Part shown: piece after piece, positions 14,198 through 33,114 of the stretch
How positions within the stretch are numbered: position 1 is the stretch's first letter
Layout of the letters: every line of letters begins with the position of its first letter
DNA from: Planctomycetota bacterium
GTDB lineage: Bacteria > Planctomycetota > Phycisphaerae > Phycisphaerales > Phycisphaeraceae
Direction of reading: 5' to 3'
NCBI GenBank assembly: GCA_039025855.1
Contig: JBCCNL010000001.1
Coordinates: 106,988-170,987, forward strand
DNA length: 64,000 bases
Translations under genes and position numbers: made by a program
Notes under the pieces: model-generated
What the model was told of the DNA's origin: nothing
What the model saw: only the letters and a program-made list of their open reading frames with translations
Databases searched by the model: none

Positions 14198-15544
14198 TCA
14201 GTTGTGAAGGGGGTAGCGGTGACCGATCGCGTGCAGGTAGGCACAGGCCGCGTCGCGTGTGGTCTGCTGGTTCTCGAGGATGCTCCAGCCGTCTCGGCCC
14301 GGGATCATGTTGCCCTTGGACTTCTGCCGCGCATGGAAGAAGTCGAGCAGCTTGAGCCGCCAACGCATGCTCAGCGGGATGTCGTCGAAGCGTCCGGACA
14401 AGACGGCGATGAGTGCCCGGTGGACGCCGAGCGGCCCTTTGCCCTGAAGCAGCAGTTCGCGGAACGGGTGGCTGTAGAAGAGATTGATGTAGTGCAACAT
14501 CAATCCTCGGCGTGCGGCGCCGCGCTCGAGGAAGTGCTGCTTTGCCCGTTGCGGGTTGTCGTTGCTCAGGACCTGGTCGGCGGCGTGGGCGGCGTCCAGC
14601 GCGCTGGCGATCGCGAGGCGCACGCCGGAGGAAAACACGGGGTCCAGGAAGGCCTCGGCATCGCCGACCATCAGGTAGCCGTCGCCGGCACCGGGTGAAC
14701 AGGTGTAGGAGAAGTCGGCCACCGACCACGTGGTCTCGGGGAAGGTCGCGTTGGCGGTGCGCTTGGCGAGCAGCGGGGTGCGTGCGATGGACCAGGCGAG
14801 TTCTTCGCCGGGCTTGACCCCCTGCTTGCGCATCGCGGTGCTGGCGGACTTATCGACGACCAGGCCGATGGAGGTGCGCTGGTCGTCGATGGGGATCACC
14901 CAGTACCAGGCCTCGTTGGCCATGACGACCGAGATGAAGCCCTCGGCGTCGCCGGCGAGGCGCTCGACGCCGGTGAAGTGCCCGACGAACGCGACCTTGC
15001 GGTGGTTCTCGAGAACCTTCTTCGTGCCGAGGTGTTTGCCGAGCACGGTGGCCTGTCCGGAACAGTCGATCACCATCCGGGCGTGCATCGGGCCAGCGGA
15101 CGTCTGCAGAGCGCAGTCGCCCTGGCTGAGCCTCTCGATGGACTGAACGCCGACACCTTGATGCAGCGTCACGCCCGGTTGCTCGGCCGCGAAGTCGAGC
15201 ACGGCCTTGTCGAAGACGCAGCGCTCGATGTTGAACGTCTCGGTCTGCCCCCACCGCTTGCCCGATTCGAAGTAGAGCATCGCGCCCTGGTCTTCTTGAC
15301 CGGCCGAGACGATCTCGGCGCCGCGCTTCGTGATCCTGGGCAGCTTCTGCAGCGTCTCGGTCAGGCCCAGGCTGTCGAGCATCGGGTTAACGCTCGGCAG
15401 CAAAGACTCGCCGACGTGGAAACGAGGGAAGTGCTCCCGCTCGATGATGTCGACGGTGTAGCCGCGGCGCGACAACGCGATCGCGGTGCACGCCCCCGCG
15501 GGCCCACCTCCAATGATCAATGCGTCGGCTGGCTTCTGTTTCAC
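14198..15544 (-). CDS. Flavin-dependent halogenase.
   Basis: GxGxxG FAD fold (IIGGGPAGACTA), 'WYWVIP' (WxWxIP) and 'FLDPVFSSG' (FxxPxSxG) signatures are all present. GTG start at 15544 in a GTGA overlap with the upstream stop. Confidence 0.8.
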   Translation of the reverse strand: MKQKPADALIIGGGPAGACTAIALSRRGYTVDIIEREHFPRFHVGESLLPSVNPMLDSLGLTETLQKLPRITKRGAEIVSAGQEDQGAMLYFESGKRWGQTETFNIERCVFDKAVLDFAAEQPGVTLHQGVGVQSIERLSQGDCALQTSAGPMHARMVIDCSGQATVLGKHLGTKKVLENHRKVAFVGHFTGVERLAGDAEGFISVVMANEAWYWVIPIDDQRTSIGLVVDKSASTAMRKQGVKPGEELAWSIARTPLLAKRTANATFPETTWSVADFSYTCSPGAGDGYLMVGDAEAFLDPVFSSGVRLAIASALDAAHAADQVLSNDNPQRAKQHFLERGAARRGLMLHYINLFYSHPFRELLLQGKGPLGVHRALIAVLSGRFDDIPLSMRWRLKLLDFFHARQKSKGNMIPGRDGWSILENQQTTRDAACAYLHAIGHRYPLHN

Positions 15545-16455
15545 GAGGCGGCCTCGATCTCAAGACAGAGGTTGTTGCGGCAGATGTCCGATCGCATCAG
15601 TTCGATCGACACCCGCGAAGGGTAGGCCGATTCAATCCCCCGGGCTAACGCGGGCAGGTCTTCGGCATCGGTCGCGTAGATCCGGAAGTGACGCAGCCGA
15701 TCGTCCGGCTCACCGATGCCGGCCATCACCGCCCGCAGGTTGGCGAGGGTTTCGTCGAACTGGGCCTGCAGCTGGTTGGGGTGTTGGCTCTCTTCACCGA
15801 CGATGCTCGCGGTGCCGGAGACAAAGAGGTGCTGCCCGAAGCGCATGGCCCGGACGAAGACGGGCGGGCTCGGCCCGAAGCGCGGCGAGTAGCGGTAGGC
15901 CGGGGTTTGACGCGGGTTCTCCAGGGCCTCGCCGGGCTGCTCGCTGGCCAGGAGGTGGACCTGCAGGTGCTCGCCGAGGTGCCCAACGGCGGTCGCGGCC
16001 GGCGTGCGATGGGGCAGTTGGTCCTCGCCGAAGCGTTGGACGAACGCGGCGGTGCGCCCGGCGTTGAAGGCCATGTAGCGATCGAACGGCTCGTGTTCGG
16101 GGGCTTGAGATTCCCAGTCCGCGAGCTGGTCGGCGGGGGCGGTGATGGGCTGGACGATGCCGGGCAGCCCGTTCCAGAGGCGGAGCAGGTGGGGGTGCCC
16201 GGTCTGGTCGAGCAGGTCGAAGAGCCGGGTGTAGAGGTCCTCGACGGTGTCTTCGAGCTGACGGGCGTCCATGGTGCTGGCGTGGGGGAGCGCGGCGTGG
16301 ACCCGGAGCATGCCGTTCTGTGCGGCGTGGTTCAGGGTGGCATCGCCCGACGGCGCAGCGGGCGGCGGGCAGAGCGCGTCGAGCCAGGACGGGGCGAGCA
16401 GCTCGTCGTCGGGCAGCTGTCGGATGCGGGGCGTGTCAGTCGTCGGTGGGTGCAT
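15541..16455 (-). CDS. Chorismatase-like protein (FkbO/Hyg5/XanB2 family) with a C-terminal YjgF/RidA-like domain.
   Basis: C-terminal 'LFVSGTASIVGEESQHPNQLQAQFDETLANLRAV' matches the RidA-fold core. The ~150-aa N-terminal extension matches the chorismatase family arrangement. Context is an aryl-polyene cluster. Confidence 0.55.
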   Translation of the reverse strand: MHPPTTDTPRIRQLPDDELLAPSWLDALCPPPAAPSGDATLNHAAQNGMLRVHAALPHASTMDARQLEDTVEDLYTRLFDLLDQTGHPHLLRLWNGLPGIVQPITAPADQLADWESQAPEHEPFDRYMAFNAGRTAAFVQRFGEDQLPHRTPAATAVGHLGEHLQVHLLASEQPGEALENPRQTPAYRYSPRFGPSPPVFVRAMRFGQHLFVSGTASIVGEESQHPNQLQAQFDETLANLRAVMAGIGEPDDRLRHFRIYATDAEDLPALARGIESAYPSRVSIELMRSDICRNNLCLEIEAAS

Positions 16456-18640
16456 CGGGTCTGGATACGATAATGCTGCTGCGGAGTCCGGAGGGGCAGG
16501 CGGACGCGAGATTTGTAGACGGCGGACCTAGCTGGGCCAGGGTGTGGAGCAGCGCGAGGCCGGTGCCGAGGGCGAACCAGGGCCCGTGGGGGAAGGGCTG
16601 GTGCCCGGCGGTGCGGAGCGGTTGCTCTTGCCGCAGATCGGTCGGGCAGAACGCGGGGCTCGGGCGGCCCTGCGTGAAGAGCTCGGCCAAGGCTTCGGTC
16701 GGGTCGTGGTATGAAACGAGGCTCGGGTCGCTCAGGACGGCCACAGGCTTGCTGCTCGCGTCCAAACGCTGGAGCACCAGCGCGATCGCGCCTTCGTGTG
16801 GGGCCGCATCGGGTGCGATGTGGCCAAAGTCCGCGACGATCTGCCGCACCAACGGGTGATCCTCCTCGGCGATACAGACGATCGCGGTGGTCCACCGCCC
16901 CGAAGCGATCCGGGCGGTCGCTAAGGCGAGGGCGTCGAGGCCGCTGGTGTGCGTGCCGATGATGCTCTGGCTTGGGCCGTGCAGCTTGTAGACCATCGAG
17001 AGGTGCGCCGCCGGTGCGTTGGGCACACCCTCGGCGAAGAGCAGCGGGTTGGCGGCCTGATAGCCCTCTTCGATCAGCGGCTTGTAGTAGTCGAGCGCGT
17101 AGCTCGCGGACCCGTTGGCGGAGGCGACCAGGCAGGCGGGCCGGGCTTCGGCGGGCGCATCGAGCCCGGGCAGGTCGGCCGGGTCGATCCCCGCGCGGTG
17201 CAGGGCGAGGTCGGTGGCCTTGAGGGCCAGACGGGTCAGCGGGCTGAGCCTCCGGGTCTTGGCCCGGGGCATGCCGGTGTTGAGGTCTGCCGGTGCGATG
17301 GTGCCGGTCGCCCACAGCAAGTCTTGATCCGGTACGCCTTCGCAGACGATGCCCGGCAGCACCACGCCAACGCCCGTGATCGCGACGCCTTGTTGGTCTT
17401 GGCTGCCTTGGTGATCCGAATGGTGAACGGACTGGGGATCCGAGCCGGGCGCGGACTGGATCATGCCGACGTTGGCCCCGCCGAAGCCAAGCGAGCTGGA
17501 GAGGAAGTGCGGGATCGGCGTGGCCAGCTCGGGCGGCGTCCCGGTGGCGAGTTGGACGGGCTCGCCGACCTGCTCGGGCGTGACGCTGGCGGTGGTGGGG
17601 AGTCGCCCGGCATCGAGGCAGGCACGGGCGATACCCGCTTCGAGTGCGCCGCAAGCGCCGAGGGTGTGACCGATCCGGCTCTTGAGGGCCGCGACCCGCG
17701 GGCCTTGGTCGCCGAAGACCTGGTGCAGGGCTTTGGCTTCCGCGGCGTCGTTGTCGCGGGTTCCGGTCGCGTGTGCCATCGCCAGGCCGATCGATGCTGT
17801 GTTGAGCTGAGCGTCACGCACAGCGTCGGCCATCGCGGCCGCAGCCCCCCTGCCGTCGGGGTGGGGCTGGGTGAGGTGGTGAGCGTCGGAGGACTCGCCG
17901 ATCCCGCGGATCAAGGCCTGCACGCCTTGGCCACGCTGCTCAGCATGCCCAGCGCGTTCGAGCACGAACACGGCGTAACCCTCGGAGACCTGCATGCCCT
18001 GGCGGTCGGCGGCGAACGGGCGCAGCCGGTCCATCGTGACCACGCGGAGCGAGTGGAACCCCGCGACGGCGTACTCGCTCACCGGGTCGTACCCGCCACA
18101 CAGGACGATGTCTGCGTCGCCGGACTCGAGGAGTGCGCGGGCGTGGCCGACCGACGAGAACGCCGATGCACACGCTGATGAGCAGGTCACGCGTGCTCCG
18201 CCGACGGGCAGGCCCTCGAGTGCGTGCTGCATGACGTGACCGGCCTGGAACCACGCGAAGACCGCGGTCGGCGATCCGCGCAGCCACGCCCCCGCGGCGT
18301 TCATGCCGTGGAGGCTGGTCCCGAGCACGGCACTGATCCGCTCCGGCGGACAGGGTGGGGCGTCGGCGTCGATGCCCGCCGCTTCGATCGCTTCGCGGGC
18401 CGCGATCGCCAGCCCGCGCGCGGCGCGTTCGTGGATCGGCAGGCCGGCGAGGCTGGCGCACTCGCCCCCGCGGATGCCCTCGTCGGCGACCTGCTCCGCC
18501 AGCTCCATGTCGCGGTAGGGGCCGAGCCCGACGCCGTCCCGGCACAGTGCCTCGACCTGCGCAGCGACGCCCGCGCCCAGCGGGCTGATGCAGCCGAACC
18601 CGGTGATCACGGGCGTGTTGCTTGGGTCTGCCTGACTCAT
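16436..18640 (-). CDS. Fused beta-ketoacyl-ACP synthase / chain-length-factor (KS-CLF) polypeptide.
   Basis: The N-half carries the KS active site 'VTCSSACASAF' and His motifs. The C-half is a second thiolase-fold repeat lacking the active Cys (CLF-like). ATG at 18640 overlaps the upstream stop as ATGA. Confidence 0.8.
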   Translation of the reverse strand: MSQADPSNTPVITGFGCISPLGAGVAAQVEALCRDGVGLGPYRDMELAEQVADEGIRGGECASLAGLPIHERAARGLAIAAREAIEAAGIDADAPPCPPERISAVLGTSLHGMNAAGAWLRGSPTAVFAWFQAGHVMQHALEGLPVGGARVTCSSACASAFSSVGHARALLESGDADIVLCGGYDPVSEYAVAGFHSLRVVTMDRLRPFAADRQGMQVSEGYAVFVLERAGHAEQRGQGVQALIRGIGESSDAHHLTQPHPDGRGAAAAMADAVRDAQLNTASIGLAMAHATGTRDNDAAEAKALHQVFGDQGPRVAALKSRIGHTLGACGALEAGIARACLDAGRLPTTASVTPEQVGEPVQLATGTPPELATPIPHFLSSSLGFGGANVGMIQSAPGSDPQSVHHSDHQGSQDQQGVAITGVGVVLPGIVCEGVPDQDLLWATGTIAPADLNTGMPRAKTRRLSPLTRLALKATDLALHRAGIDPADLPGLDAPAEARPACLVASANGSASYALDYYKPLIEEGYQAANPLLFAEGVPNAPAAHLSMVYKLHGPSQSIIGTHTSGLDALALATARIASGRWTTAIVCIAEEDHPLVRQIVADFGHIAPDAAPHEGAIALVLQRLDASSKPVAVLSDPSLVSYHDPTEALAELFTQGRPSPAFCPTDLRQEQPLRTAGHQPFPHGPWFALGTGLALLHTLAQLGPPSTNLASACPSGLRSSIIVSRPDAPTDD

Positions 18641-19539
18641 GAAGGCGCGGGGTCTTTCAGTTCGTGCTGGTTCTCGATAAAGGCCCGTTGGAGCGTGTGC
18701 CATTGGCCGGGTTGACGGGCGATGATCCCGGAGAAGAACGCGGCGAGCCGGTGTCGGATCGAGTCCTTGTCGGGGTGTGGGTCGGCCTCGCTTGGACCGA
18801 TGGGCCGGTCGATATGGAGCAGGACGCGGCCGTCGGGCTGAACGCTACAGGCAATCGGGAGGATGGGGGCACCGGTGATCTGTGCGAGCTTGGCGGGGCC
18901 GTCGGGCATCTGCATGTGGCCGTGCAGGAAGGGGGTGGGCGTACCGGGCTGGCCGGGCATGCAGCGGTCGGCCTGGATCAGGACGGCGGCGCCACGGCAC
19001 AGCGCGTCGCGGAGCTGCATCCATGTCTCCAATCCGCCCTCGACCCGCGCTTCGGTCAGACGCAGCCGCCGGTGCAGCTCGCTACGCATCCGGTCAAACC
19101 CGCTGTCCTCGTCGCTCTGGAACAGGATGTGTGTCTCCGGCACCCGCTCGGCGACGGCCACGGCACCCACCTCGAAGTTGCCCACGTGGCAGGTCGCGAT
19201 GATCAGGCCACGCTCCATCTGGAGCGCCGCCTCGAAGTGGTCTCGGCCCTCGATGTCCGCGACGCGGCCGAGCATCTGAGCGGGGTCCATGACCCGGGCC
19301 TGTGCGAGATCGCCAACGAACCGCAGAAACTCGCAGACCACGGACCGCCCGTAGCGCGCGAGTGCCGCGTCGTCGGCGTCCGGCCCGAGCACCCAGCGCC
19401 CGTTGCTCTTGCAGACACGCCTGAGGTAGCCGGAGCCGAACCAGGCGATCGCCGCTAAGGCGTCGCGGTGCCGGACCAGCCAGCCCGGCCGAAGCGCGAC
19501 GGCACTGAACAGGAGCTTGAGAGTAAGGCGGTGAAGCAT
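18637..19539 (-). CDS. LpxL/HtrB-type lipid A biosynthesis acyltransferase-like protein (lysophospholipid acyltransferase superfamily).
   Basis: Family-level similarity ('IIATCHVGNFE' region). ATG at 19539. Its position matches the lauroyl-acyltransferase-like gene of aryl-polyene clusters. Confidence 0.6.
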   Translation of the reverse strand: MLHRLTLKLLFSAVALRPGWLVRHRDALAAIAWFGSGYLRRVCKSNGRWVLGPDADDAALARYGRSVVCEFLRFVGDLAQARVMDPAQMLGRVADIEGRDHFEAALQMERGLIIATCHVGNFEVGAVAVAERVPETHILFQSDEDSGFDRMRSELHRRLRLTEARVEGGLETWMQLRDALCRGAAVLIQADRCMPGQPGTPTPFLHGHMQMPDGPAKLAQITGAPILPIACSVQPDGRVLLHIDRPIGPSEADPHPDKDSIRHRLAAFFSGIIARQPGQWHTLQRAFIENQHELKDPAPS

Positions 19540-19554
19540 GGTGCGGTCTGTCGT

Positions 19555-20295
19555 TCAGCGGCGGTTGTCCTGCTCGGAGTTCCCCTCCGGGTACTCGACG
19601 CGTGCATCGTCCGGCACGTCCAACGCGATCTCAGTGTCCGCCACCGTCTGGTTGATACGCACCTGCGAGAACTCCATATCGGTCCGGTCACCCGCCGCAT
19701 CGGTGGACGAGGCGCTGACGATCAGTCCCAGCATCGGGTCGAATCCCAGCGTGAGCGACTGCATGTGTTCGCGGACCGACTCACGGGGCTCGAGCGCGAG
19801 CGTGACCCGGCCGCTGCGTGGATCGGTCGACAGATCGGCAAGCCGGAAGTCCCTGGCGAGCGCTTCGGGGTCGGGTCGGCCCGTGGTCATCGCCATGCCG
19901 TTGGGGGGGATGCGGTAGACCTCGAGCACGTTGTCATCGGGGTAGTAGATGTGCATCTGCGTGGCGTTGAAATGCATCTCGACGGGCGACGGCGTGGTGA
20001 GCGACAAGCGTGCGGCCTCGCCCTTGGCGACGAAGCGGCCTCGCGAGACGACCGGCTCATCGAGCAGCAGGCTGGTGCGCTTCTGCGTGAACACGGCGCG
20101 GACCGACTCGGGCTTCGGCGACTGATCCAGCAACTGGCCGAGCTGCTTCCAACGCTCGGCCTCGGATGTTTCGTCGGGCTGGCTGGCGGACTCGGCGACG
20201 GCCGGCGCGGGGCAAGCGAGGATGACCGCCAGCATCAGGCAGCACCGGGCGGCCAGCGAGGTGACATATGTCCAGACTGAGACGGAGCAACGCAC
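19555..20295 (-). CDS. LolA-like outer-membrane lipoprotein carrier family protein.
   Basis: Signal peptide followed by a beta-rich, LolA-sized (246 aa) protein. Context matches aryl-polyene clusters. GTG at 20295; an alternative ATG lies at 20235. Confidence 0.55.
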   Translation of the reverse strand: MRCSVSVWTYVTSLAARCCLMLAVILACPAPAVAESASQPDETSEAERWKQLGQLLDQSPKPESVRAVFTQKRTSLLLDEPVVSRGRFVAKGEAARLSLTTPSPVEMHFNATQMHIYYPDDNVLEVYRIPPNGMAMTTGRPDPEALARDFRLADLSTDPRSGRVTLALEPRESVREHMQSLTLGFDPMLGLIVSASSTDAAGDRTDMEFSQVRINQTVADTEIALDVPDDARVEYPEGNSEQDNRR

Positions 20296-20302
20296 GGCCG
20301 AT

Positions 20303-20764
20303 TCAACCCTTGAGCACGTTGGTGAGGAGGATCTCGCCGCGGGCGATCAGCCGACCATCGACGTGTGCGGCGACGAGAAACGTGGTGATGCCGGCCGTGT
20401 CGCCTTGGGTCTCGGAGGACAAGTCGATCCGGGCGGGCGGGACGACCGGTCGCTTGAGGACGACGTCCGCCTTGACGATCCCGGCCTGCACCGGCTCGGC
20501 ACCCGGCTCGGCGTCAAAGTGGATCAGCCCGCTGAACTGCGCGAGTGCTTCGATCAGCAGCACGCCGGGCACGATCGGTCGGCCCGGGAAGTGGTCCTTA
20601 AAGAACGGCTCGTCGCCGCGGACCCGCCAGTGGCCCTTACCGTGGGTCGTCCCGTCCGGCGTCGATCCGCACTCATCGACGGCGGTTACAAAGCGGAAGC
20701 CGTCGCCGTGCGGCAGCGACGTCGGCGTGGGCAAATCCTGAGTGTTTCGCGTCTCTCCGGGCAC
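20303..20764 (-). CDS. FabA/FabZ-like 3-hydroxyacyl-ACP dehydratase (hotdog fold).
   Basis: '[10 protein letters not shown]...[23 protein letters not shown]' matches the FabZ catalytic His region. GTG at 20764. Confidence 0.8.
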
Positions 20765-20876
20765 GATTTAGACTATAGCAGCAGGCGTTGTTAGACTGCC
20801 TCTGATGTCGTTTGGCCGCGGCGGTACCACCGCCGGCCGCTTTCACCTCGCACAACTTTCGCCTTGGGGATTACCT
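20765..20876. promoter_or_regulatory. Divergent promoter region between the aryl-polyene operon (minus) and a lipoprotein gene (plus). Contains a TTAGACT direct repeat (20768..20774 and 20791..20797).
   Basis: Seen directly in the sequence. The region has lower GC than its surroundings. Confidence 0.3.
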
Positions 20877-21296
20877 ATGACTCGCGTCCTTCCGCTGCTT
20901 CTGGTTGCCACGCTCTGCCTGTCTGTCGCCGCCTGCCAATCCAGCGGTGTCAAGGGCACGCCGATGATTGAGCCCGCACCCGTGGACATCACGGGCCTGG
21001 ATAAAGACAAGGTCTCGAAGGCGGTCTTCGCCGCCGTCGAATCACGCGGCTTTATCTTCGAAAGCGGCACATCGACTTCCATGCAGGTCGGCTGGGCCCG
21101 CGGCAAGTACACCGCAACCTGGGAGATCGATTTTGCGGGCGACGAGGTCATCCTCAGCTACGTCGATAGCCAGGAGCTGTCGTACAACGAAGACGCCGAG
21201 GGCAACCCGTTCATCCACCGGACCTACAACACCTGGACCACCAACCTGCGGAGCGACATCGCCCGTGAGGTCGGCAAGCTGCGGTTCAGCAGCTGA
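20877..21296 (+). CDS. Small lipoprotein (signal peptide + lipobox LSVAAC), function unknown.
   Basis: ORF 20805..21296 trimmed to the ATG at 20877 (MTRVLPLLLVATLCLSVAAC). The only plus-strand gene inside the aryl-polyene cluster. Confidence 0.55.
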   Translation: MTRVLPLLLVATLCLSVAACQSSGVKGTPMIEPAPVDITGLDKDKVSKAVFAAVESRGFIFESGTSTSMQVGWARGKYTATWEIDFAGDEVILSYVDSQELSYNEDAEGNPFIHRTYNTWTTNLRSDIAREVGKLRFSS

Positions 21297-21326
21297 GGCA
21301 ATCACCGAGCCGTCCGGGGTTGACGG

Positions 21327-21351
21327 GCCCAAACCGTCTTAGGGTTTGGGC
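21327..21351. terminator. Hairpin GCCCAAACC-(gtcttag)-GGTTTGGGC between convergent genes. It overlaps the methyltransferase stop codon.
   Basis: Perfect 9-bp inverted repeat seen in the sequence. No U-tract follows, so an intrinsic terminator is unproven. Confidence 0.3.
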
Positions 21352-22136
21352 TTGGTGCCCAGGTACTCCTTGAAGACGCTGAGCGTACTGTTGCAGCGCA
21401 CGTCCTCGAAGCCGGCCTCACGCATCGCGTTCATGATGGCCTCGGAGTCGATGCAGGTCTGGATCGTGTCCCAGTAGTAGCGCCAGAGCGTGCCGACCTC
21501 TTTGCGCTCGCCGGTGAGCCGGGCCAGGAGCGGAACGACCCGCCGGATGTAGAGCCCACCGAGCCAGCCGGTCAGTCGGCCGCGCGGCTTGGTGATCTCC
21601 ATCAGGCAGACCTGGCCGCCGGGCTTGAGCACCCGCAGGTATTCGCCGAACGCCTGCTCCAGGCTGCTGAGGTGCCGCAGCGCGTACCCCATCGTGACCA
21701 GGTCGAACCGGTCGTCGTCTAGCGGGATCGACTCGGCGTAGCCCTCGATGACCTCGACGTCGAGCTTCTGCTTCGCCTCGGCGAGCATGCCCGGTGAGGG
21801 GTCGAGCCCGACAAGGACGCCGCCGGGCAGGTTCAGCTTCTGGATCTCGACCGCCACCAGCCCCGTCCCCATCGCGACATCCAGCACGTCGTCGCCGGGC
21901 TTGAGCCCCATGCGTCTGAGCACCCGCCTGCGGTACCACGGCCCGACGCCCAGCCCTGTCAACGCCTCGGCCTTGTCGTAGCCCGCCGCCCCGGCGTCGA
22001 ACATCTCACGCGTCCGGTCACGGCGCTGCGCTTCACTCTCGTAGTAGCGCTCCAGGCCCGCACCCTCCACCAGCGGGGTGTCGGCACCACCGATGGTGGA
22101 CTCGCTCGGCAGGCTCGGTGCGGTGCTCGGCATCAC
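21339..22136 (-). CDS. Class I SAM-dependent methyltransferase (UbiE/COQ5 family).
   Basis: Motif I 'VLDVAMGTGLVAVEI'. Start is GTG at 22136 (GTGA overlap) or ATG at 22133. Confidence 0.85.
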   Translation of the reverse strand: MMPSTAPSLPSESTIGGADTPLVEGAGLERYYESEAQRRDRTREMFDAGAAGYDKAEALTGLGVGPWYRRRVLRRMGLKPGDDVLDVAMGTGLVAVEIQKLNLPGGVLVGLDPSPGMLAEAKQKLDVEVIEGYAESIPLDDDRFDLVTMGYALRHLSSLEQAFGEYLRVLKPGGQVCLMEITKPRGRLTGWLGGLYIRRVVPLLARLTGERKEVGTLWRYYWDTIQTCIDSEAIMNAMREAGFEDVRCNSTLSVFKEYLGTKPKP

Positions 22137-23458
22137 GCCACCCCCGCGGGGCTCGTGGCTGGTCGGTGATCGACACGCGTCAGGGCCAACGCCCGGTGGT
22201 GCAGCGTGGTCTGAGCGAACAGCACCGTGACGAACGGGACCATGCCCGTCAGCGCCGCACCCGTCGGCCGCAGCAGGATGCCCATGAAGACAGCCAGAAC
22301 CGAGACGCCGGCGATCACCCAGGCGTCGCCCCGGTTCGAGGCTTCCGGCACCCGGTCGACCCCCAACAGCCAGCCCGGCCGAAACACCGCGAGCATCACA
22401 CAGACCGCAGCGACCCAGAGGTGCAGCGCGAGCTCCTGCAGCTGGCCGTAGCTGTTATGGATCAGCGGATAGAACGCGGTGCCCTGCGATAGAACGCCCA
22501 GCGAGCCCAGCAAGAGGAACATGAACGACGCGGCGGGCAGCGGCTGGTAGCCGAGTCGCAGGCGTCGCCACAGCGCGATCACGATGAGGCTGAGCGTGCC
22601 ACCGACGAGGAAGGCCGGGTGCCAGCGCGGCTCGGGCTCAAGCCCCATCCGGACCAGCCCGACGATCAGGAACACCGACAGCGGCAGGTAGAGCAGTTGG
22701 TGCCGCAGCCACTTGTTCAGGAAGACCGCGGGCCGCGGATGGTCCTTGAGAACTGCAGCGTGCATCGCCAGGCTGTGCAGCGAGTCGCGGAGCGGTTTGA
22801 AGTGGCTGATCCGCTGGGCTCTGGGCGAGTAGTGCGAGTCGATCGGCACCGTGGTCACGCCGACGCCAGCCCTCCCGGCACGGATGAGCACCTCGGTCTC
22901 GAAAGCGAACCGAGAGAACACGCAGTCCAGCTTCTCGACGACGGCGAGCGGGTAGACACGGAAGCCGGTCTGCGAATCGCTGACCCGGACGCCGGACTGC
23001 AAGGAGATCAGACGGTTCGACACACGCCGGCCCACGGTCGATCGCCACGGCGTGCCGCCCTCCGCCTTGGCAGGGCGCTCGCCCAGGATTAGGTCCCCGG
23101 GGTACCGGACCGCGGCGTCCCACAGCAGGCCGATCTGCTGTGGGTCGTGCTGGCCGTCGGCATCGAGCGTGATGGCGTGGGAGTAGCCCAGCGCCCGGGC
23201 CCGGTCGAACCCGGTCATCAACGCCGCGGCCTTGCCCCGGTTGGCCGGGTGCTTCTCCAGGTGGAGCGAGGCGTCCGGATCGTCGGCTCGCAATTGGGCC
23301 AGCGTCTGATCCGTGCCGTCGGTGCTCCCGTCGTCCACCACGATGCAGGCCCAGCCCGCGTCGAGCACCGCCCGGGCGATCGTGCAGACGGTCGAGCCGT
23401 TCTGGTAGGTCGGCACAACGATGACCGGTCGGATCGCGGTGTCAGTGGCGGGTGGCAT
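22133..23458 (-). CDS. Glycosyltransferase family 2 with a C-terminal multi-TM domain.
   Basis: 'VIVVPTYQNGSTV...VVDDGSTDGTDQ' GT-A DxD region. ATG at 23458. The C-terminal half is hydrophobic. Confidence 0.8.
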   Translation of the reverse strand: MPPATDTAIRPVIVVPTYQNGSTVCTIARAVLDAGWACIVVDDGSTDGTDQTLAQLRADDPDASLHLEKHPANRGKAAALMTGFDRARALGYSHAITLDADGQHDPQQIGLLWDAAVRYPGDLILGERPAKAEGGTPWRSTVGRRVSNRLISLQSGVRVSDSQTGFRVYPLAVVEKLDCVFSRFAFETEVLIRAGRAGVGVTTVPIDSHYSPRAQRISHFKPLRDSLHSLAMHAAVLKDHPRPAVFLNKWLRHQLLYLPLSVFLIVGLVRMGLEPEPRWHPAFLVGGTLSLIVIALWRRLRLGYQPLPAASFMFLLLGSLGVLSQGTAFYPLIHNSYGQLQELALHLWVAAVCVMLAVFRPGWLLGVDRVPEASNRGDAWVIAGVSVLAVFMGILLRPTGAALTGMVPFVTVLFAQTTLHHRALALTRVDHRPATSPAGVA

Positions 23459-23490
23459 GGGGTGGAGTTGAGGGTGGGGCGGGGTTGTAG

Positions 23491-23751
23491 TTAGGCCATC
23501 CGGGTCTGGAGATAGGTCGCCAGCGTTCGGAGGTCACGCATCGTCTCAGGCCCCATCTCGTCGGGACTGAGCTTGATGCCGTACTTCTTTTCAATGCTGG
23601 TGATAAGCATGAGGTAGTCCAGCGAGTCGAACCCGATGTCCTCGGAAGCGAACGAAGTGGTTGGGGTCAGCTCGACGTCGCCGAGCTTCAGGTCCCGCCG
23701 GATGATCTCGATCAGAGCCCCCTCCAGTTCCTCAACATTCACCACTTTCAT
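23491..23751 (-). CDS. Acyl carrier protein, dedicated to the polyene pathway.
   Basis: 86 aa with the 'GFDSLD' phosphopantetheine-attachment motif. The ATG at 23751 is preceded by GGAGG. Confidence 0.85.
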   Translation of the reverse strand: MKVVNVEELEGALIEIIRRDLKLGDVELTPTTSFASEDIGFDSLDYLMLITSIEKKYGIKLSPDEMGPETMRDLRTLATYLQTRMA

Positions 23752-23778
23752 GGCCTCCGACTATACCAGTGCAAGGGC

Positions 23779-24465
23779 CTACTCGCGATAGGCGTGGCGG
23801 CGTCGCGTCGCGCACTGATCCTCGGGAATCCCCATCTCCTCGAGCAGGTCCCGGTGCAGGCCGCGGATGCGGTCGGCCAGCTCGGCTTCGTACCGCCGGA
23901 GGCCCTCGGGGCCGGACCGTTTGTCCGGCGGCGGCATCGGTTCGCCAAAAGCAATCCCGTAGCGGGCCTGGTTCGGAAACCATGCGCTCCAACGTGCAAA
24001 GGTCAGCGAGTCCTCGATCGCACAGGGGATCATCGGGGCCTTGCCCAGCCGGGCGATCCCGCCGATCCCTGGCACGAGGCTCCCGCCGTGCAGCACCGAC
24101 TTGTCCTGAAAACTCAGCGCCCCCTCAGGGAAGACACCCACGCTCCGGCCCTGCTTCAGCCGCGCCACAATGTCACGCACCGTCTTCGGGTCCGGCTTCG
24201 ACTGATCCAACGGCATCGCATTACACATCCGATACAGCCAGCCCGCACGGGAGTTGATGATCTCCGTCGTCGAAACGAAGTCGATCTTGACCGGCATGTA
24301 GTACATCAGGATCGCGATGTCGTAAGGGCTCGTGTGGTTCGAGGCCACCATCAGCGGTCCCTCGAGACCCTTGAGGTGATCGAGACCCAACGCCGTCGGC
24401 TTGTGGCAGATCACGAAACCGGGCCAACAGATTCCGTAAACGACGTTGTAAAAAAGATCGGACAT
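23779..24465 (-). CDS. PlsC-type 1-acylglycerol-3-phosphate acyltransferase-like (LPLAT).
   Basis: HxxxxD motif 'NHTSPYD' and 'FPEGA' motif. ATG at 24465. Confidence 0.75.
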   Translation of the reverse strand: MSDLFYNVVYGICWPGFVICHKPTALGLDHLKGLEGPLMVASNHTSPYDIAILMYYMPVKIDFVSTTEIINSRAGWLYRMCNAMPLDQSKPDPKTVRDIVARLKQGRSVGVFPEGALSFQDKSVLHGGSLVPGIGGIARLGKAPMIPCAIEDSLTFARWSAWFPNQARYGIAFGEPMPPPDKRSGPEGLRRYEAELADRIRGLHRDLLEEMGIPEDQCATRRRHAYRE

Positions 24466-24469
24466 CGGT

Positions 24470-25237
24470 CTAGGTCTGAGCCGTGGCGTGGGGTGGGTGG
24501 AGAGCGCTACCCGCTGCGGCGTGGGGATCGACTTTAACGAGACTGGGGTCGTCCGGCTCGCCGGGGCTCAGGTCGTGGCGGTCGTCCACGCCGTCGAACT
24601 GGAGCAGCCGCTTGTACATCGCCGGGTAGGACGCGCGGAGCCGATCGCCGAGGGCTCGGCGTTGTTCACGACGCCCGCGGTGGTCGTTGTGCAGCGGTTC
24701 GGGGTGGATCGGCTCACCGACCGCGACATGGACCGCCGCGTGCCGGAACGGCCGCCAGGTCGTAGCCCGGTTCATGGCGTGTGTCCCGATGAGCGCGATC
24801 GGGATGATCGGCACCTGGCCGTGCATCGCGAGGAAGCACGCCCCCTGCTTGATCGGGCCGCCGCGCATGGCCGAGTACTGGCGACGCGACACCCCGGCCT
24901 CGGGGAACACGCCAACGCGTTCACCCTCCGCCAACAGCTCAAGCCCGCGGCGCAGCGCCGGCCGTGGGTAGCCCTGCCGATGGACCGGGAACGCCCGAAC
25001 CGCACGAAGCGCCCAGGCCAGCAGGCGGGACTTGTAGAACTCAGTCCGCGCCATCCACCGCACCTCGTCGCGTAGCAGGATGCCGAGGACCAGCGGGTCC
25101 AGGTGCGAGATGTGCGTCGGCGCGATGATGCAAGGCCCGTCGACCCCGAGGTGCTCCGGGTTCAGGATGGTCGTGGGCATCGTGCACCACGTGATCGGCT
25201 TCACCAGCCAGCGTGCGGTTTGATAAGCCAGGGTCAT
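24470..25237 (-). CDS. Second PlsC-type acyltransferase-like protein.
   Basis: ORF 24470..25681 trimmed to the ATG at 25237 (MTLAYQTARWL...). Carries 'HISHLD' and 'FPEAG' motifs. ATGA overlap with the MMPL stop. Confidence 0.7.
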   Translation of the reverse strand: MTLAYQTARWLVKPITWCTMPTTILNPEHLGVDGPCIIAPTHISHLDPLVLGILLRDEVRWMARTEFYKSRLLAWALRAVRAFPVHRQGYPRPALRRGLELLAEGERVGVFPEAGVSRRQYSAMRGGPIKQGACFLAMHGQVPIIPIALIGTHAMNRATTWRPFRHAAVHVAVGEPIHPEPLHNDHRGRREQRRALGDRLRASYPAMYKRLLQFDGVDDRHDLSPGEPDDPSLVKVDPHAAAGSALHPPHATAQT

Positions 25238-27702
25238 CGGTCTTGCCCTTCGACCAGTAGAGAGCCCGCGTTGCGTCGCCCGACCGAGAGCCCGAGCAGC
25301 CAGGTCGTCACGAGGACCGCGACGAGCCCGGCGGTGACCATCCACCCCAACTCGCGCACCGCCGGGATCGACGTCCACATGAGCGAGCCAAACCCGATAA
25401 AGGTCGTCACGAACGTCAGGTGGATGCCCGTCAATCGGCTTCGGATTGTAACCACACACCCCCGCGCGACGGCATCGCCCAGCAGCAGGCTCGCATCGAC
25501 CCCGATCCCCAGCAGCAGCGGCACCGCCGCCAGCGTGACCACGTTCCATTGACCCGACCCCAGCCGCTGCACGAGCAGCGCCGCGAGCAGACCCATCGCC
25601 GGCGGCAGCACCGTCACCACCACACGCCCAACCCGCCGGAGGCTCACCAGCAGCACCAGCCCGATCGGGATCACCGACCACGCGAACGCCCGCAGCAGGT
25701 CACGACGCAGCTGCTTCCGCATCTGCTCGCTGATCAGGTCGAGCCCGGTGGCTTGGAACCCGTCAAGCCCCGACAGCGCTTCACGCAGCCCGTCGAGGTC
25801 TTCACGCCGGTCCGACTCCCGCGCCCACGAACGCGTCGGTACCAGCAGCGCCACCGTGGCCGGCGCGTCGGCATCGAACGGGCTCGGGAAGAACAGCCCC
25901 CCCGCACCGGACCGGGCCAACGCCTCAAGCCCCGGCGACGGCGTCGCCAAAAACCCCGCCAAAAAATCCCCGGCCGGCTCGAACACCGCAGGCCGAAACC
26001 CGGCCTGTCCAGCCGCCTCCAGCAACAAACGCTTGACCTCGACCGGATCGATGTCAGCGAGCAACGCGCTGTTGCGCACGTCGGCCCCAGCCTCGGGCAG
26101 CAGGCTCAGCGCGCTGGCCTTCTCAAACGGGGTATCGAGCCCATGCAGCCGATCCAACCGCTCGTACAGCTGCCCCGCGTCTTCAGCCTCGATCAGCACC
26201 AGCACAGAACCCTGGCGTTGGCCGAACGACCGCTCCATCCGCTGCTGAGCCTCGAGCGTCGGGTTGGGCTGCGGGTGCAGGTTGTACAAGGTCAGTGCGC
26301 TGTCATCCCCGCGGATCAGCACGGCACTCAAGATCATCACCAGGACAAAGGCGATGCCCGCGACGCGTAGCCACGTCGAGTGCGCGAGCGCCCAAACGAG
26401 CAGACGATGAGGCGTTGCGCTGGTCCGGGGAGTCACCGTCTTGCACAGCCCAGTCAACGTGGGCAGAAGGGTCAGCGAGGCGATCGCCGCGCAGGCCAGC
26501 GCCAGACCGCCGAGCACCGCGAGCTGCTTCAGTGCGGTCGGCTCGGTGGCAAGCAGCGCCAGGAAGCCGCACGTCGTGGTGATGCACGCCGTCGCGATCG
26601 GCCGGGCCAGCGTCCGCGCCGCCGACCACGCCCGCTGCACCGGGGTCGTGCCGTCGGGCGCGGCACGCCGCACCTCCGTGAGCAGATGGATCCCGTAGTC
26701 CACGCCCAGCCCCGCGAGCATGCCGCCAGACAATGCCGCGAGCGGCGACAGCCTCATCCCGGTCAGGCCAAAAAGCCCGAACGCGGTGAACATCGCCACT
26801 AGGGTCGTCGTCAACAGCAACACGATCGGCGTCAGCCGCCGCCACACGATCAGGAACACCCCGACCAGCCCGACCGACGCGAACAGCACCGACCCCTTGA
26901 TGTCGTCCCGCACCCGGCCCGCCGCCTCGGCCGCCATCATGTGCCCCCCCACCGCCTCGAACCGCAGCGTCGGATAGTCCCGGCCCAGCGGTGCCAACAC
27001 CCCGTTCAAGGCTTCGGACAATTCAACCGAACGCGCGTGGTCACTCGGAGCAAACGGCACCGCGAGCGTGAGGGACCACGCCGTGCCGGACGCGCTAAAC
27101 CGCCCAGCCAGCGGATTGGTCGGTGCGCTCCATTCCGTCTCATCAATACCCGGCGCGGACGGCGTGTCTGCACCCAGCCGTTCCGCAAAGTCGCGCGGCA
27201 CGAGCTCGCGGAGCCCCAGCGGGTCGCGCAGCATCTGCCGTGTGACCTCCGCCGGCTGCGGCGTAGCGAGGCGTTGCTTGTGGCGCTGCAGCCTCGCCCG
27301 GATCGACTCGGGCTCCAGCCGGGCGCGCAGTTCCACCACCGCCTCTTCGCTGAGCCAGGCCCGGCCACGCGGGACCTGCTGAATCACCCAATCACGGGCC
27401 TGCAACTCGGCCACGGCCTGCGCCTCGACACCAAGCTCCTCAAGCCCCTGCGAATCACGGATCGCATCACGCAGCTGATCGATCGCTTCGATCGGGAGCG
27501 GCGTGGCATCATCACGCGAGCTGACCAAGACGTGCGCCGTACCACCGATGCGAAACCGCTCGTTGATCTGCACCATCGCATCGACCGCGGGGAAGCCCTG
27601 GCCAAGCGTGTTCTCGACCGACGGGTCGAGCTCGAGCCGCGTCCAGCCGATGCACGCCAGCACGAACAGCGCCGGCCACAGGTAGAGGGAAAGGCGTCGC
27701 AT
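25234..27702 (-). CDS. MMPL/RND-superfamily exporter.
   Basis: 822 aa with two 6-TM bundles separated by periplasmic loops. This is the canonical exporter slot of aryl-polyene clusters. ATG at 27702. Confidence 0.8.
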   Translation of the reverse strand: MRRLSLYLWPALFVLACIGWTRLELDPSVENTLGQGFPAVDAMVQINERFRIGGTAHVLVSSRDDATPLPIEAIDQLRDAIRDSQGLEELGVEAQAVAELQARDWVIQQVPRGRAWLSEEAVVELRARLEPESIRARLQRHKQRLATPQPAEVTRQMLRDPLGLRELVPRDFAERLGADTPSAPGIDETEWSAPTNPLAGRFSASGTAWSLTLAVPFAPSDHARSVELSEALNGVLAPLGRDYPTLRFEAVGGHMMAAEAAGRVRDDIKGSVLFASVGLVGVFLIVWRRLTPIVLLLTTTLVAMFTAFGLFGLTGMRLSPLAALSGGMLAGLGVDYGIHLLTEVRRAAPDGTTPVQRAWSAARTLARPIATACITTTCGFLALLATEPTALKQLAVLGGLALACAAIASLTLLPTLTGLCKTVTPRTSATPHRLLVWALAHSTWLRVAGIAFVLVMILSAVLIRGDDSALTLYNLHPQPNPTLEAQQRMERSFGQRQGSVLVLIEAEDAGQLYERLDRLHGLDTPFEKASALSLLPEAGADVRNSALLADIDPVEVKRLLLEAAGQAGFRPAVFEPAGDFLAGFLATPSPGLEALARSGAGGLFFPSPFDADAPATVALLVPTRSWARESDRREDLDGLREALSGLDGFQATGLDLISEQMRKQLRRDLLRAFAWSVIPIGLVLLVSLRRVGRVVVTVLPPAMGLLAALLVQRLGSGQWNVVTLAAVPLLLGIGVDASLLLGDAVARGCVVTIRSRLTGIHLTFVTTFIGFGSLMWTSIPAVRELGWMVTAGLVAVLVTTWLLGLSVGRRNAGSLLVEGQDR

Positions 27703-27705
27703 GGG

Positions 27706-28497
27706 TCAATCGGGGCCGAACGCGAGGCTGAGCCGAGTCGCAAGACCGAGCCGGCGGCTTCCGGGCACCGGCTTGAAGTGGGCCGGCGTCAGTGATGGAT
27801 TGGGCTGGAACGCGTCAACAAGGAACTCCACAACCGGCTCCCCGCCCAGGCTCAGCCGCAGCGCGTCCACATGCGGCGCCGGCTCACCACTTCGATAACG
27901 CAGCTCGGTCGTCACCGGGCCATCGGGGCTCTGAACCAAGACCCGGTGAGTCGTCCGAGTGCTGCGGTGGACCCAGACCTCAGCGGGATGCTCGCCGATG
28001 AGGTCAGTCGTGTTGAACACTAGGTGATCGTCGGCCGACCGATCGAAGACCAGCGACTCGCTGCGGATCAATGCGAGCGGCAGTTCGATCGGTGCAGCGT
28101 CCGTCGCATCACCACCCGCGTCGTCGGCACGGCTCCGGGTCCAGACCCACGCCTCCCCGTCGGCATACACCAGGTCAATCGCGTTGCGACCGAGCTTGCT
28201 CGCGCGCAGCCGCAGGCGGGGTGATTCAGTCTCGAGCGCATCGATCAGCATGATCCCGTCCAGCCTTGTGGTTCGGCCTTCCCGCGACAGCAACACCGTG
28301 CCGACCGCCCGCCACGACGTGAGCCCCGCATCACGCTCCTGCATCGCCGCAAGCACCGCCTCGGGCGCCGCGTCTTCGTACACCGGCAGATCAACACCGG
28401 GGTGGTCGTACACACCGCCGCGCTGGAGACACCCCTGCCCGAGCACCGCGAACGCGGGCATCAACCACGCCCACGCCGAAAACACCCGGCCCGTCAC
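27706..28497 (-). CDS. LolA/LolB-like outer-membrane lipoprotein-sorting family protein (putative lipoprotein).
   Basis: The ORF track gives 27706..28602, but that overlaps the upstream gene by 109 nt. A GTG at 28497 forms a GTGA overlap with the upstream stop and yields the signal peptide MTGRVFSAWAWLMPAFAVLGQGC. Confidence 0.5.
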   Translation of the reverse strand: MTGRVFSAWAWLMPAFAVLGQGCLQRGGVYDHPGVDLPVYEDAAPEAVLAAMQERDAGLTSWRAVGTVLLSREGRTTRLDGIMLIDALETESPRLRLRASKLGRNAIDLVYADGEAWVWTRSRADDAGGDATDAAPIELPLALIRSESLVFDRSADDHLVFNTTDLIGEHPAEVWVHRSTRTTHRVLVQSPDGPVTTELRYRSGEPAPHVDALRLSLGGEPVVEFLVDAFQPNPSLTPAHFKPVPGSRRLGLATRLSLAFGPD

Positions 28498-29960
28498 GAG
28501 GGCACCGCCGACAACGCCTCGTCTGGCTGGGCGTGCCGGATCACTTTGCCCAACGCCGTGCGCGGCAGGTGTTCGCAGGCGAAGGTGCGCGGCACCTTCC
28601 ACGGCGCAAGGTGGTGCCGGCAGTGGCGTCGCAGTTCGGCCGCCGTCGGCGGGGCGTCGTCGTCGGTCGGCTCGATCACCGCGTTGAGCCGACTGATCGT
28701 GTGGTTCAGCCGCTCCTCACCGACGAGCGCTTCGCGGACGCCGGGGTGCAGCCGAAGGATGGCCTCGACCTCCATCGGGTTGACCTTGTTCGCACCGACA
28801 TCGATCAGCAGCTTCCGCCGTGCGACAAACCGGAAGTGCCCGTCGCGCCCGCGCACCCCCAGGTCGCCCGTCAGGAAACATCGCCGCCCCGCGATCTCAG
28901 TAAATGGAGGCTCGTGCTCGGCCTCGCCCAACGCGTCGATGTAGCCCGTCATCAGCGACGGGGCATCGACCGCGATCTCGCCCGTCATGCCGTCCGAGAC
29001 CGGCACCCGGCTGTCCGGATCCACGATGTGCATCGCCACCCCCGGCATCGGCCGCCCCAACCACCCGGCATCGTGCCCCGGCTCATGTGGGTCCGCCAAA
29101 CAGACCGAGCCCATCTCCGTCGCCCCGTAGTAGTTCGCCGCTTCAAGCCCGAGCTTGTCCCGGCAGGCATACCACAGCGGCTCGGGCAGCGTCGCACCCG
29201 CACAAAGCAGGCGACGCAGCGTCGGGAACGCCGGCTCACCCGGTTCGCCGCGGTGCATCTGCACGAGCATGTCGACCATGGCCGGGACCGCCGGCAGGAT
29301 CGTCGCACCGGTCTCATGGATCCGCTGCGCCAACCGGTCCGGCGTGAACGCGTTCTCCAGCTCGACACGCGACCCCGCCAACAGCGGCGCAAGCAGCCCC
29401 GCCTCCAGCCCATACGCATGGGTCAACGGCACCGCCGCAAACACGGTGTCGCCAGCCAGGTACCCCACCGACGTGCAGACCTGACACGCCACCGCGTCCA
29501 CCGCCGCCGCCTCCCGCCGCACCACCTTCGAACCGCCAGTCGTGCCCGATGACGGCAGCGCCAGCCAGCCGCGTAGTTCGACCGGTCCATCCGTCCGCTG
29601 CGTGTCCAACGAGGCCCCCTCCGCCACCGACTCCTCCACACGCACCGTCACCCCAACACCCGCCTGCTGCGCCACGCGCCGACGCTCCGCGTCCGGCAAG
29701 CGATCCGACATCGGCAACACCCCATACCCCAGATGCCACAACGCAAACAGGTGCACCACCATCCCCGGCGTCGAGCCGCCCACCAGCCCGACGGGCCGCG
29801 CCGCGTCCGGCCCGGGCAGCTCCGACGCCAACCGCTCCGCGCAGCCCAGCACCAGGCCCGGCAGCTCCCCGTAGCTCACCTCCACCTCACCCAGCCGCAG
29901 CAGAACCCCGGACGGCGACCGCTGCGCGTGCTGTTGAATCGCCTGACTGATCCCTTGCAT
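28494..29960 (-). CDS. AMP-dependent synthetase/ligase (aryl/acyl-AMP ligase; starter-unit activation).
   Basis: 'LPSSGTTGGSKVV' AMP-binding motif plus the A8-A10 core. ATG at 29960 (MQGISQAIQQ...). Confidence 0.8.
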   Translation of the reverse strand: MQGISQAIQQHAQRSPSGVLLRLGEVEVSYGELPGLVLGCAERLASELPGPDAARPVGLVGGSTPGMVVHLFALWHLGYGVLPMSDRLPDAERRRVAQQAGVGVTVRVEESVAEGASLDTQRTDGPVELRGWLALPSSGTTGGSKVVRREAAAVDAVACQVCTSVGYLAGDTVFAAVPLTHAYGLEAGLLAPLLAGSRVELENAFTPDRLAQRIHETGATILPAVPAMVDMLVQMHRGEPGEPAFPTLRRLLCAGATLPEPLWYACRDKLGLEAANYYGATEMGSVCLADPHEPGHDAGWLGRPMPGVAMHIVDPDSRVPVSDGMTGEIAVDAPSLMTGYIDALGEAEHEPPFTEIAGRRCFLTGDLGVRGRDGHFRFVARRKLLIDVGANKVNPMEVEAILRLHPGVREALVGEERLNHTISRLNAVIEPTDDDAPPTAAELRRHCRHHLAPWKVPRTFACEHLPRTALGKVIRHAQPDEALSAVPS

Positions 29961-30917: not shown

Positions 30918-30941
30918 ACCCCCGCTCCGGAGCACACTGCC

Positions 30942-33059: not shown

Positions 33060-33114
33060 CCCGGCCGTTCTTCACGCATCCGCTGAGCTGCACCCGCCGT
33101 GCCCAGAGTAATCG

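Follow-up and report, generated by a model that had tools for sequence, protein, structure and literature searches.

A likely xanthomonadin/arcuflavin-type aryl-polyene lipid cluster with a fused ketosynthase and half chain-length factor, and lacking a cluster ketoreductase, in Phycisphaerae

Few bacterial specialised metabolites are as widespread as aryl-polyene lipids, which protect cells against light and oxidants. To our knowledge, no member of the class has been characterised from Planctomycetota, where pigmentation is credited to carotenoids only. The window analysed here is a 64,000-nt stretch from a Planctomycetota bacterium of the family Phycisphaeraceae (assembly GCA_039025855.1, contig JBCCNL010000001.1, forward-strand positions 106,988 to 170,987; all coordinates below count from its first letter). 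At 14198-29960 it carries 15 high-GC3 reading frames, 14 of them on the minus strand, that a preliminary description had read as an aryl-polyene pigment gene cluster with a halogenase. The analysis makes it likely that this cluster represents the Phycisphaerae form of the xanthomonadin/arcuflavin-type aryl-polyene lipid pathway and yields a polyene pigment. Its gene set is a lineage-wide variant of a known pathway type, not a new kind of system.

The ape clusters of Escherichia coli CFT073, Xenorhabdus doucetiae and Acinetobacter baumannii (bioRxiv 10.1101/2020.12.19.423268) share with the window an aryl starter, an AMP-ligase, an acyl carrier protein (ACP), a ketosynthase (KS) with a short chain-length factor (CLF), a dehydratase (DH), a methyltransferase, an acyltransferase, a glycosyltransferase, an RND/MMPL pump, a LolA-like carrier and a LolB-like lipoprotein. 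Their complement also includes the KS enzymes ApeO and ApeR, two ACPs, two DHs (ApeI:ApeP), the ketoreductase (KR) ApeQ, the thioesterase ApeK and a COG4648 protein, whereas the window has none of these second copies and neither KR nor thioesterase. Set against the ape-family core of Grammbitter et al., which comprises KS, ACP, CLF, DH, KR and transporter, the window contains a KS, a short non-catalytic CLF, an ACP, a DH and a transporter and lacks a cluster KR. Conversely, ape clusters have no chorismatase or halogenase and start from a 4-hydroxyphenyl unit. Flexirubin clusters of Bacteroidota resemble the window in their aryl-polyene type II system, LolA-like proteins and exporter, but they use DarA/DarB and a starter derived from tyrosine ammonia-lyase, while the window supplies its starter through a chorismatase; no DarA/DarB or tyrosine ammonia-lyase domain occurs among the Pfam-scanned window genes.

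The pig/xan clusters of Xanthomonas and the Lysobacter enzymogenes cluster have, as is predicted here, a XanB2-type chorismatase for a 3-hydroxybenzoate starter, an aryl-acid ligase and a dedicated ACP (PMC3691225, PMC6859482, PMC3949708), together with a type II KS, a truncated CLF (~275 aa there) and genes for membrane targeting and export. A halogenase is reported in the Xanthomonas clusters, consistent with brominated pigments, whereas Lysobacter has no halogenase and a non-brominated pigment. The product typical of the xanthomonadin/arcuflavin subfamily is a methylated, brominated aryl-octaene or -heptaene ester of the outer membrane. These systems differ from the window in that the cluster KR FabG3/XanH is essential, two dehydratases are present and KS and CLF are separate, while the window has no KR, one DH and a fusion. 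The likeness to Xanthomonas is drawn from published descriptions rather than direct sequence comparison.

Sequences were compared directly with one proteobacterial arc-type locus (L083), found through the chorismatase homologue P0232, and with the other systems by way of published gene tables. The gene set of L083 equals the arcuflavin gene table of Azoarcus (PMC3949708), in the order Na/H exchanger, halogenase, chorismatase, MipA, acyltransferase, GT2 glycosyltransferase, KR, ApeP-like DH, a 266-aa Ketoacyl-synt_2 protein, KS, methyltransferase, polysaccharide deacetylase and MMPL. Identity to the window proteins is 40% for the chorismatase, 38% for GT2, 34% for the halogenase (E 6e-60) and 25% for MMPL. 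The arc/L083 clusters and the window have in common a KS with a half-CLF, a FabZ-like DH, GT2, a PlsC-type acyltransferase, a methyltransferase, an MMPL exporter, LolA, an AMP-ligase and an ACP (PMC3949708). Furthermore, the halogenase that marks the xanthomonadin/arcuflavin subfamily lies within the cluster. It adjoins the predicted XanB2-type chorismatase as it does in L083 and in arcA/arcB of Azoarcus sp. BH72 (PMC3949708), which bears out the proposal that this pair is a hallmark of xanthomonadin/arc clusters. The arc clusters differ in having KS and half-CLF as two genes rather than one, in possessing a dedicated KR (arcH), and in being divided between two loci with a link to a dialkylresorcinol cluster, none of whose genes was seen in the window. 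MipA, the Na/H antiporter and the polysaccharide deacetylase are likewise absent from the window, unlike in arc/L083.

The elongation step is assigned to a 734-aa protein (16436-18640, minus strand; PF00109, PF02801). Its KS domain (residues ~10-395) retains the TCSS motif with Cys153 and two His-containing motifs, and is followed by a linker of ~20 residues (~396-417) and a CLF-like KS N-terminal half (~418-640). The C-terminal 320 aa amount to a degenerate KS N-terminal domain without the catalytic Cys and, searched alone, match PF00109 (4.6e-15) and, weakly, PF13723 (2e-4). KS residues 11-394 are 31% identical to the KS of L083, and residues 419-606 are 26% identical to the product of the gene directly downstream of it. 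A profile of the CLF half aligns from residue 1 with the L083 half-CLF (hhalign probability 90%), against 3.6% for the L083 KS. Thus the KS cysteine is present, the CLF cysteine is absent, and the two parts of the protein correspond to two adjacent proteobacterial genes. Because the window gene is collinear with the two separate genes of L083, it is a fusion of the adjacent xanthomonadin/arc-type KS and half-CLF genes. The preliminary description was right to list a KS-CLF ketosynthase, although the union of both in one polypeptide had gone unrecognised. In Lysobacter, Wang et al. described ORF16 (275 aa) as a CLF cut to its N-terminal half and adjoining the KS ORF17 (PMC3691225).

At the position of the KS cysteine, the CLF half (16436-17395) carries His in the window clade and Arg in most other Phycisphaerae; the actinorhodin CLF has Gln there, and the CLF-half alignment shows an invariant Gln six residues upstream. 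A precedent for KS and CLF in one chain is PfaC of the polyunsaturated fatty acid (PUFA) synthases. PfaC belongs to a multidomain megasynthase whose CLF is full-length, whereas the window protein is a stand-alone two-domain protein with the N-terminal CLF half only. Affinity to PUFA synthases is limited to a weak, sub-threshold match to the PfaA model, the only such model listed. The term KS-CLF didomain appears in PMC9702510 and PMC12895367, and no account of a fused KS and half-CLF in aryl-polyene clusters was found in the literature searched.

Supply of the aromatic starter points to the same pathway type. The chorismatase (15541-16455, minus strand, 304 aa, of the Hyg5/XanB2 kind) matches PF21168 (4e-18) and TIGR04444 (1e-40), with Hyg5 (5ag3, 9e-25) as its best PDB match. 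It has the Hyg5-type G240, C327 and E334, given as CH-Hyg5 signatures in PMC7170507, the first two of which are replaced by Ala in FkbO; the triad occurs in 120 of 120 homologues. Position 173 is Ala, as in the arc-type homologue P0232, and JGI annotates homologues as chorismate lyase/3-hydroxybenzoate synthase. The enzyme belongs to the FkbO/Hyg5 family and is a predicted 3-hydroxybenzoate synthase, with the proviso of Schoener et al. that the product type of a chorismatase is not reliably predictable from alignment alone (PMC3949708). Another homologue, P0141 (40% identical), was set aside as a comparator as it stands alone, outside any aryl-polyene cluster. It lies (L084, 10001-10975) ~3 kb from a chorismate synthase gene, a setting which implies that the chorismatase family also has other roles.

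The aryl-acid AMP-ligase (28494-29960, minus strand, 488 aa; PF00501 1.9e-47, PF13193) contains all core motifs (SSGTTGGSK, YGATE, TGD and PRTALGK), and its place beside the LolB-like and MMPL genes is conserved among Phycisphaerae loci. It is predicted to be the analogue of XanA2/ArcT/ApeH that loads hydroxybenzoate on the ACP; L083 ends before its own ligase. The dedicated ACP (23491-23751, minus strand, 86 aa; PF00550 6.5e-11) has a DSL motif whose serine is residue 43.

Two genes may decorate the aromatic ring. The flavin-dependent halogenase (14198-15544, minus strand, 448 aa; PF04820 3.2e-22) has the motifs GGGPAG, WYWVIP (WxWxIP type) and GDAEAFLDPVFSSG (GDAxxFxDPxxSxG), and the Lys of its RITKRG sequence aligns with the KK of CmlS. 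CmlS is also its best NCBIfam match (1.7e-50), and its best PDB matches are 8zop, CmlS, Bmp2, CndH and PltA (1e-46 to 1e-39); a literature search found no paper describing 8zop. The UbiE/COQ5-family S-adenosylmethionine-dependent methyltransferase (21339-22136, minus strand, 265 aa; PF01209 8.4e-32) is a variable accessory gene, with a counterpart within 10 kb in 3 of 82 related loci.

The remaining genes of the cluster are of the kind used for lipid anchoring and export. Both PlsC-type acyltransferases, of 255 aa (24470-25237, minus strand; PF01553 6.6e-21) and 228 aa (23779-24465, minus strand; PF01553 8.8e-16), have HxxxxD-type motifs, HISHLD and HTSPYD respectively. A third acyltransferase of the LpxL/HtrB family (18637-19539, minus strand, 300 aa; PF03279 2.1e-18) lies directly upstream of KS-CLF in all tabulated gene orders. 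The GT2 protein (22133-23458, minus strand, 441 aa; PF00535 3.8e-21) has a C-terminal membrane domain with ~5 hydrophobic segments at residues 250-395 by a crude hydropathy scan and is a putative ApeJ/ArcE analogue. In the MMPL/RND-type exporter (25234-27702, minus strand, 822 aa; PF03176 6.4e-16), a candidate ApeM analogue, an equally crude scan found eight hydrophobic segments, and matches to HAE3 and HpnN are sub-threshold. The periplasmic LolA-like carrier (19555-20295, minus strand; PF03548 2.7e-08) falls below the cut-offs of TIGR00547 and LolA2_flexi (E 2e-7 for the latter) and would be the analogue of ApeL/ArcQ.

Of the two LolA-like proteins in the preliminary description, this PF03548 protein is one; the other is by fold a LolB-like lipoprotein (27706-28497, minus strand, 263 aa). 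It has no Pfam or NCBIfam match, a PDB profile search returned nothing, and hhalign against the LolA family gave 49% probability. The structural model, with only 5 homologues to draw on, is of moderate confidence, its fold matches are consistent, and on that basis the protein is assigned as the predicted ApeN analogue. The NCBI start for this gene (ATG 28461, 251 aa) lies just 10 residues before the lipobox Cys, while a start at GTG 28497 provides a normal signal peptide as well as the GTGA overlap and agrees with the family consensus. Transporter, LolA-like carrier and LolB-like lipoprotein together make up the export set of the ape family.

Pfam and NCBIfam searches bore out the 15 genes, 14 on the minus strand, and their domains, and third-position GC bias is strong and catalytic motifs intact in all 14. 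Analysis of starts and junctions located each of the five 4-nt overlaps that had been described: 28497/28494 (GTGA), which holds only with the GTG start chosen for the LolB-like gene; 25237/25234 (ATGA), where the start of the first PlsC gene overlaps the MMPL stop; 22136/22133 (GTGA), where the methyltransferase start overlaps the GT2 stop; 18640/18637 (ATGA); and 15544/15541 (GTGA). The suggestion of a single operon, by contrast, fails, because a plus-strand lipoprotein gene (20877-21296, 139 aa, with a signal peptide and the lipobox VAAC) splits the minus-strand genes into two blocks. Neither Pfam nor NCBIfam places this protein in a family, and a homologue was found in no locus but L003, the closest relative. 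The gene looks like a recent insertion and is probably an interruption, not a pathway member. A sigma-70 promoter scan gave no sites and terminator-like sites occurred at chance level, so that the operon boundaries rest solely on gene orientation. On the minus strand, TATAGT(C) boxes stand 7-8 nt 5' of the dehydratase GTG (20764) and the ACP ATG (23751), at 20765-20790 and 23752-23775, and look like -10 elements of transcripts with very short leaders. The GGAGG noted ahead of the ACP is indeed there, 3 nt 5' of the ATG, yet its role as a Shine-Dalgarno sequence may not hold, as it is placed between the TATAGT box and the start codon. The impression of a Planctomycetota-like genome proved correct: three of its proteins, KS-CLF, chorismatase and the LolB-like lipoprotein, match NCBI proteins from a Planctomycetota metagenome-assembled genome at 100% identity.

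The distribution of fused KS-CLF relatives was scanned with one genome per GTDB species. Of the 161 species genomes that encode one, the best 80 are all Phycisphaerae, among them Algisphaera and Fontivita pretiosa. Relatives belong to the Phycisphaeraceae and Tepidisphaeraceae, and Algisphaera agarilytica has the same gene set. Among the 43 well-covered loci, defined by at least 5 kb on both sides, the LpxL-like acyltransferase is found in 42 (78 of 82 loci overall), DH and LolA in 38 each, AMP-ligase and chorismatase in 36 each, the halogenase in 35, chorismatase and halogenase jointly in 33, and MMPL in 32; the methyltransferase is found in a single one. The typical order is ACP-DH-LolA-LpxL-KSCLF-chorismatase-halogenase-ligase-(LolB-like)-MMPL, of which the window arrangement is a permutation of two blocks. 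Published antiSMASH arylpolyene regions include those of Phycisphaera mikurensis and Terricella alpina, the second of them similar to Algisphaera (PMC8882080, PMC13514998). Related clusters often carry extra genes (L001 19731-22075; L011, L039, L076 and others). A polysaccharide deacetylase occurs in 14 loci and also in Azoarcus and L083; an ankyrin-repeat lipoprotein occurs in 8 related loci; and Algisphaera adds a 491-aa protein without a Pfam match.

A pathway can be proposed from these parts. The chorismatase would convert chorismate to 3-hydroxybenzoate, possibly with some 4-hydroxybenzoate, which the AMP-ligase would adenylate and load on the dedicated ACP. The single-chain KS-CLF would then extend it iteratively with malonyl units, beta-keto reduction being left to a trans-acting reductase encoded elsewhere, likeliest a housekeeping FabG or a distal short-chain dehydrogenase/reductase (SDR), and the FabZ/ApeI-like dehydratase would remove water to give the conjugated polyene. 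The halogenase may brominate or chlorinate the ring. Solved halogenase relatives include enzymes acting on carrier-protein-tethered substrates, which makes halogenation at the ACP-bound stage plausible. The methyltransferase would add a methyl group to the ring or to its hydroxyl. A glycolipid or phospholipid anchor would be assembled by GT2 and the three acyltransferases, which would also join the aryl-polyene acyl chain to it, and MMPL, the LolA-like carrier and the LolB-like lipoprotein would bring the lipid to the outer membrane, where it may act as a photo- and oxidative-stress protectant. For homologues, genetics and biochemistry have been published on XanB2/ArcB, ArcT (PMC3949708), the Lysobacter KS and half-CLF (PMC3691225) and FabG3 (PMC6859482).

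Classification as a xanthomonadin-type aryl-polyene cluster is supported by homology to L083, the collinear half-CLF, the chorismatase residues and the halogenase motifs, and the product is probably a halogenated, outer-membrane-anchored aryl-polyene pigment. Several observations weigh against this reading. All NCBIfam matches of the cluster proteins score below curated cut-offs. Scores of the KS domain against the L083 KS (127 bits) and the ApeO structures 6qsp and 7f28 (~131-133 bits; 3e-37 and 1e-37) do not surpass that against FabF (164 bits); the aryl-polyene affiliation is therefore drawn from context and the CLF half instead of from KS similarity. There is a single KS, ACP and DH, each of which is doubled in ape clusters. 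Although Azoarcus possesses a halogenase gene, the reported arcuflavin masses (m/z 608.4 and 317.2) fit, by our reading of PMC3949708, a halogen-free molecule, so the presence of the gene does not imply a halogenated product and halogenation here is a prediction. Finally, cultured relatives are described as pink or reddish, with the colour credited to carotenoids and no aryl-polyene reported (PMC8882080, PMC13514998).

The lack of a KR counts on the same side. As had been noted earlier, the window contains neither a KR nor a thioesterase: a Pfam scan of 37 called genes across the 64 kb found no SDR/ketoreductase or thioesterase domain; the scan did not extend to two called genes (60603-63334) or to an uncalled gap (52986-54920). 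FabG-like genes within 10 kb are confined to 2 of the 43 well-covered Phycisphaerae loci and to 2 of all 82, as judged with a FabG query that, as a positive control, finds the KR of L083 at 40% identity. Because such genes are this rare and the control worked, the missing KR is a conserved trait of the Phycisphaerae version, neither a window-edge effect nor an assembly accident. In Xanthomonas, FabG3/XanH is indispensable, and FabG1, FabG2 and E. coli FabG are no substitute (PMC6859482). Ketoreduction is therefore the weak point of the proposed pathway. This leaves three options: a Phycisphaerae FabG that accepts the substrates, a distal SDR, or a product that falls short of a full polyene. 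No description of a KR-less architecture for aryl-polyene clusters was found in the literature searched.

The last of these options defines a rival that we consider unlikely, namely that FabG, and possibly FabI, are shared with fatty-acid synthesis, and that the (halo)hydroxyphenyl acyl chain is partly or fully saturated and sits in an outer-membrane glycolipid that is colourless or weakly coloured. We know of no precedent for a saturated-chain product from such clusters. Such an aryl-capped lipid would suit the absence of a KR from the window and nearly all related loci, seen with a working control, the single FabZ/FabA-like 3-hydroxyacyl-ACP dehydratase (20303-20764, minus strand, 153 aa; PF07977 1.6e-14), a KS at least as FabF-like as it is aryl-polyene-like, and cultured relatives that are not described as yellow (PMC8882080). 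It is harder to square with the half-CLF partner, which is common to the polyene-forming xanthomonadin and ape systems compared (PMC3691225), with the Algisphaera homologue of the dehydratase, which also matches the ApeI-like family PF22818, and with the match of all other components to polyene-pigment clusters.

An incomplete or silent remnant is still less probable. In that case no elongation would occur without a dedicated KR, and perhaps hydroxybenzoate production and export would be retained; the absent KR, the failure of housekeeping FabGs to replace the cluster KR in Xanthomonas (PMC6859482) and the silence of many ape clusters in culture (bioRxiv 10.1101/2020.12.19.423268) are all in keeping with it. 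However, the 14 minus-strand genes are intact in motifs and third-position GC bias, and in the Phycisphaerae loci examined the KR-less architecture persists with intact frames down to ~37-40% identity, a conservation that argues for purifying selection on a working pathway. Least probable is a lipid A or general fatty-acid/phospholipid modification locus in which the aromatic genes are incidental neighbours, an outcome that the preliminary description had allowed for. LpxL- and PlsC-family acyltransferases, GT2, LolA and MMPL are envelope-lipid functions, and the LpxL-like protein is matched best in NCBIfam, though below cut-off, by a phosphatidylinositol mannoside acyltransferase. Against this, the same envelope-lipid genes are standard in xanthomonadin, arcuflavin and ape clusters (PMC3949708). 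Chorismatase, halogenase, ligase, ACP and KS-CLF lie within translationally coupled blocks with the lipid genes and co-occur with them in a fixed order in most related loci, and it is this coupling and co-conservation that makes a lipid A locus so improbable. The polyene-pigment reading is thus preferred. More tentatively, the Phycisphaerae may quite possibly hold a lineage of their own of the xanthomonadin-type pathway, with a fused KS/half-CLF, that runs without a cluster KR, a second DH and ACP, or a thioesterase.

Elsewhere in the window, the genes at 2590-9702 (minus strand) form an unrelated set, with a beta-helix/PKD protein, an ATP-grasp protein, a weak AMP-binding-like protein and a GT4 glycosyltransferase, and may be a surface-polysaccharide or small-molecule locus. 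A 1343-aa secreted protein (9855-13886, plus strand) has three ~200-aa repeats with poly-proline linkers between them, followed by cadherin-like/Big_9, Calx-beta and PA14 domains and a glucose/sorbosone dehydrogenase beta-propeller. The stretch at 30105-41436 (plus strand) encodes, in succession, a YqiJ/NfeD-like membrane protein, a coiled-coil protein of 705 aa that is flotillin-like in appearance, a 1848-aa protein with DUF3686, DUF7902 and AAA domains, a protein of 273 aa and an AAA ATPase of 605 aa; for the large ATPase genes, PADLOC returned no more than weak LmuB/JetC/IetA-like matches. Consecutive genes at 42716-49952 (minus strand) encode a SecA-like ATPase (721 aa), a 745-aa protein with Peptidase_M50 and PqqD domains and two membrane-fusion proteins of the HlyD type, possibly a dedicated peptide export or processing module.

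As an annotation the cluster is otherwise ordinary, antiSMASH already labelling such regions arylpolyene. A natural single-chain KS-CLF is nonetheless convenient for structural and enzymological work on chain-length control, and the KR-less version amounts to a natural test of whether a dedicated ketoreductase is needed. Cultured carriers exist in Algisphaera agarilytica and Fontivita pretiosa, which makes the prediction of a halogenated pigment directly testable. If functional, the system would be a minimal aryl-polyene synthase that recruits a fatty-acid FabG or an undiscovered reductase, unlike the Xanthomonas system; and if the prediction is true, its product would be, within the literature searched, the first halogenated aryl-polyene lipid from the Planctomycetes-Verrucomicrobia-Chlamydiae (PVC) superphylum.

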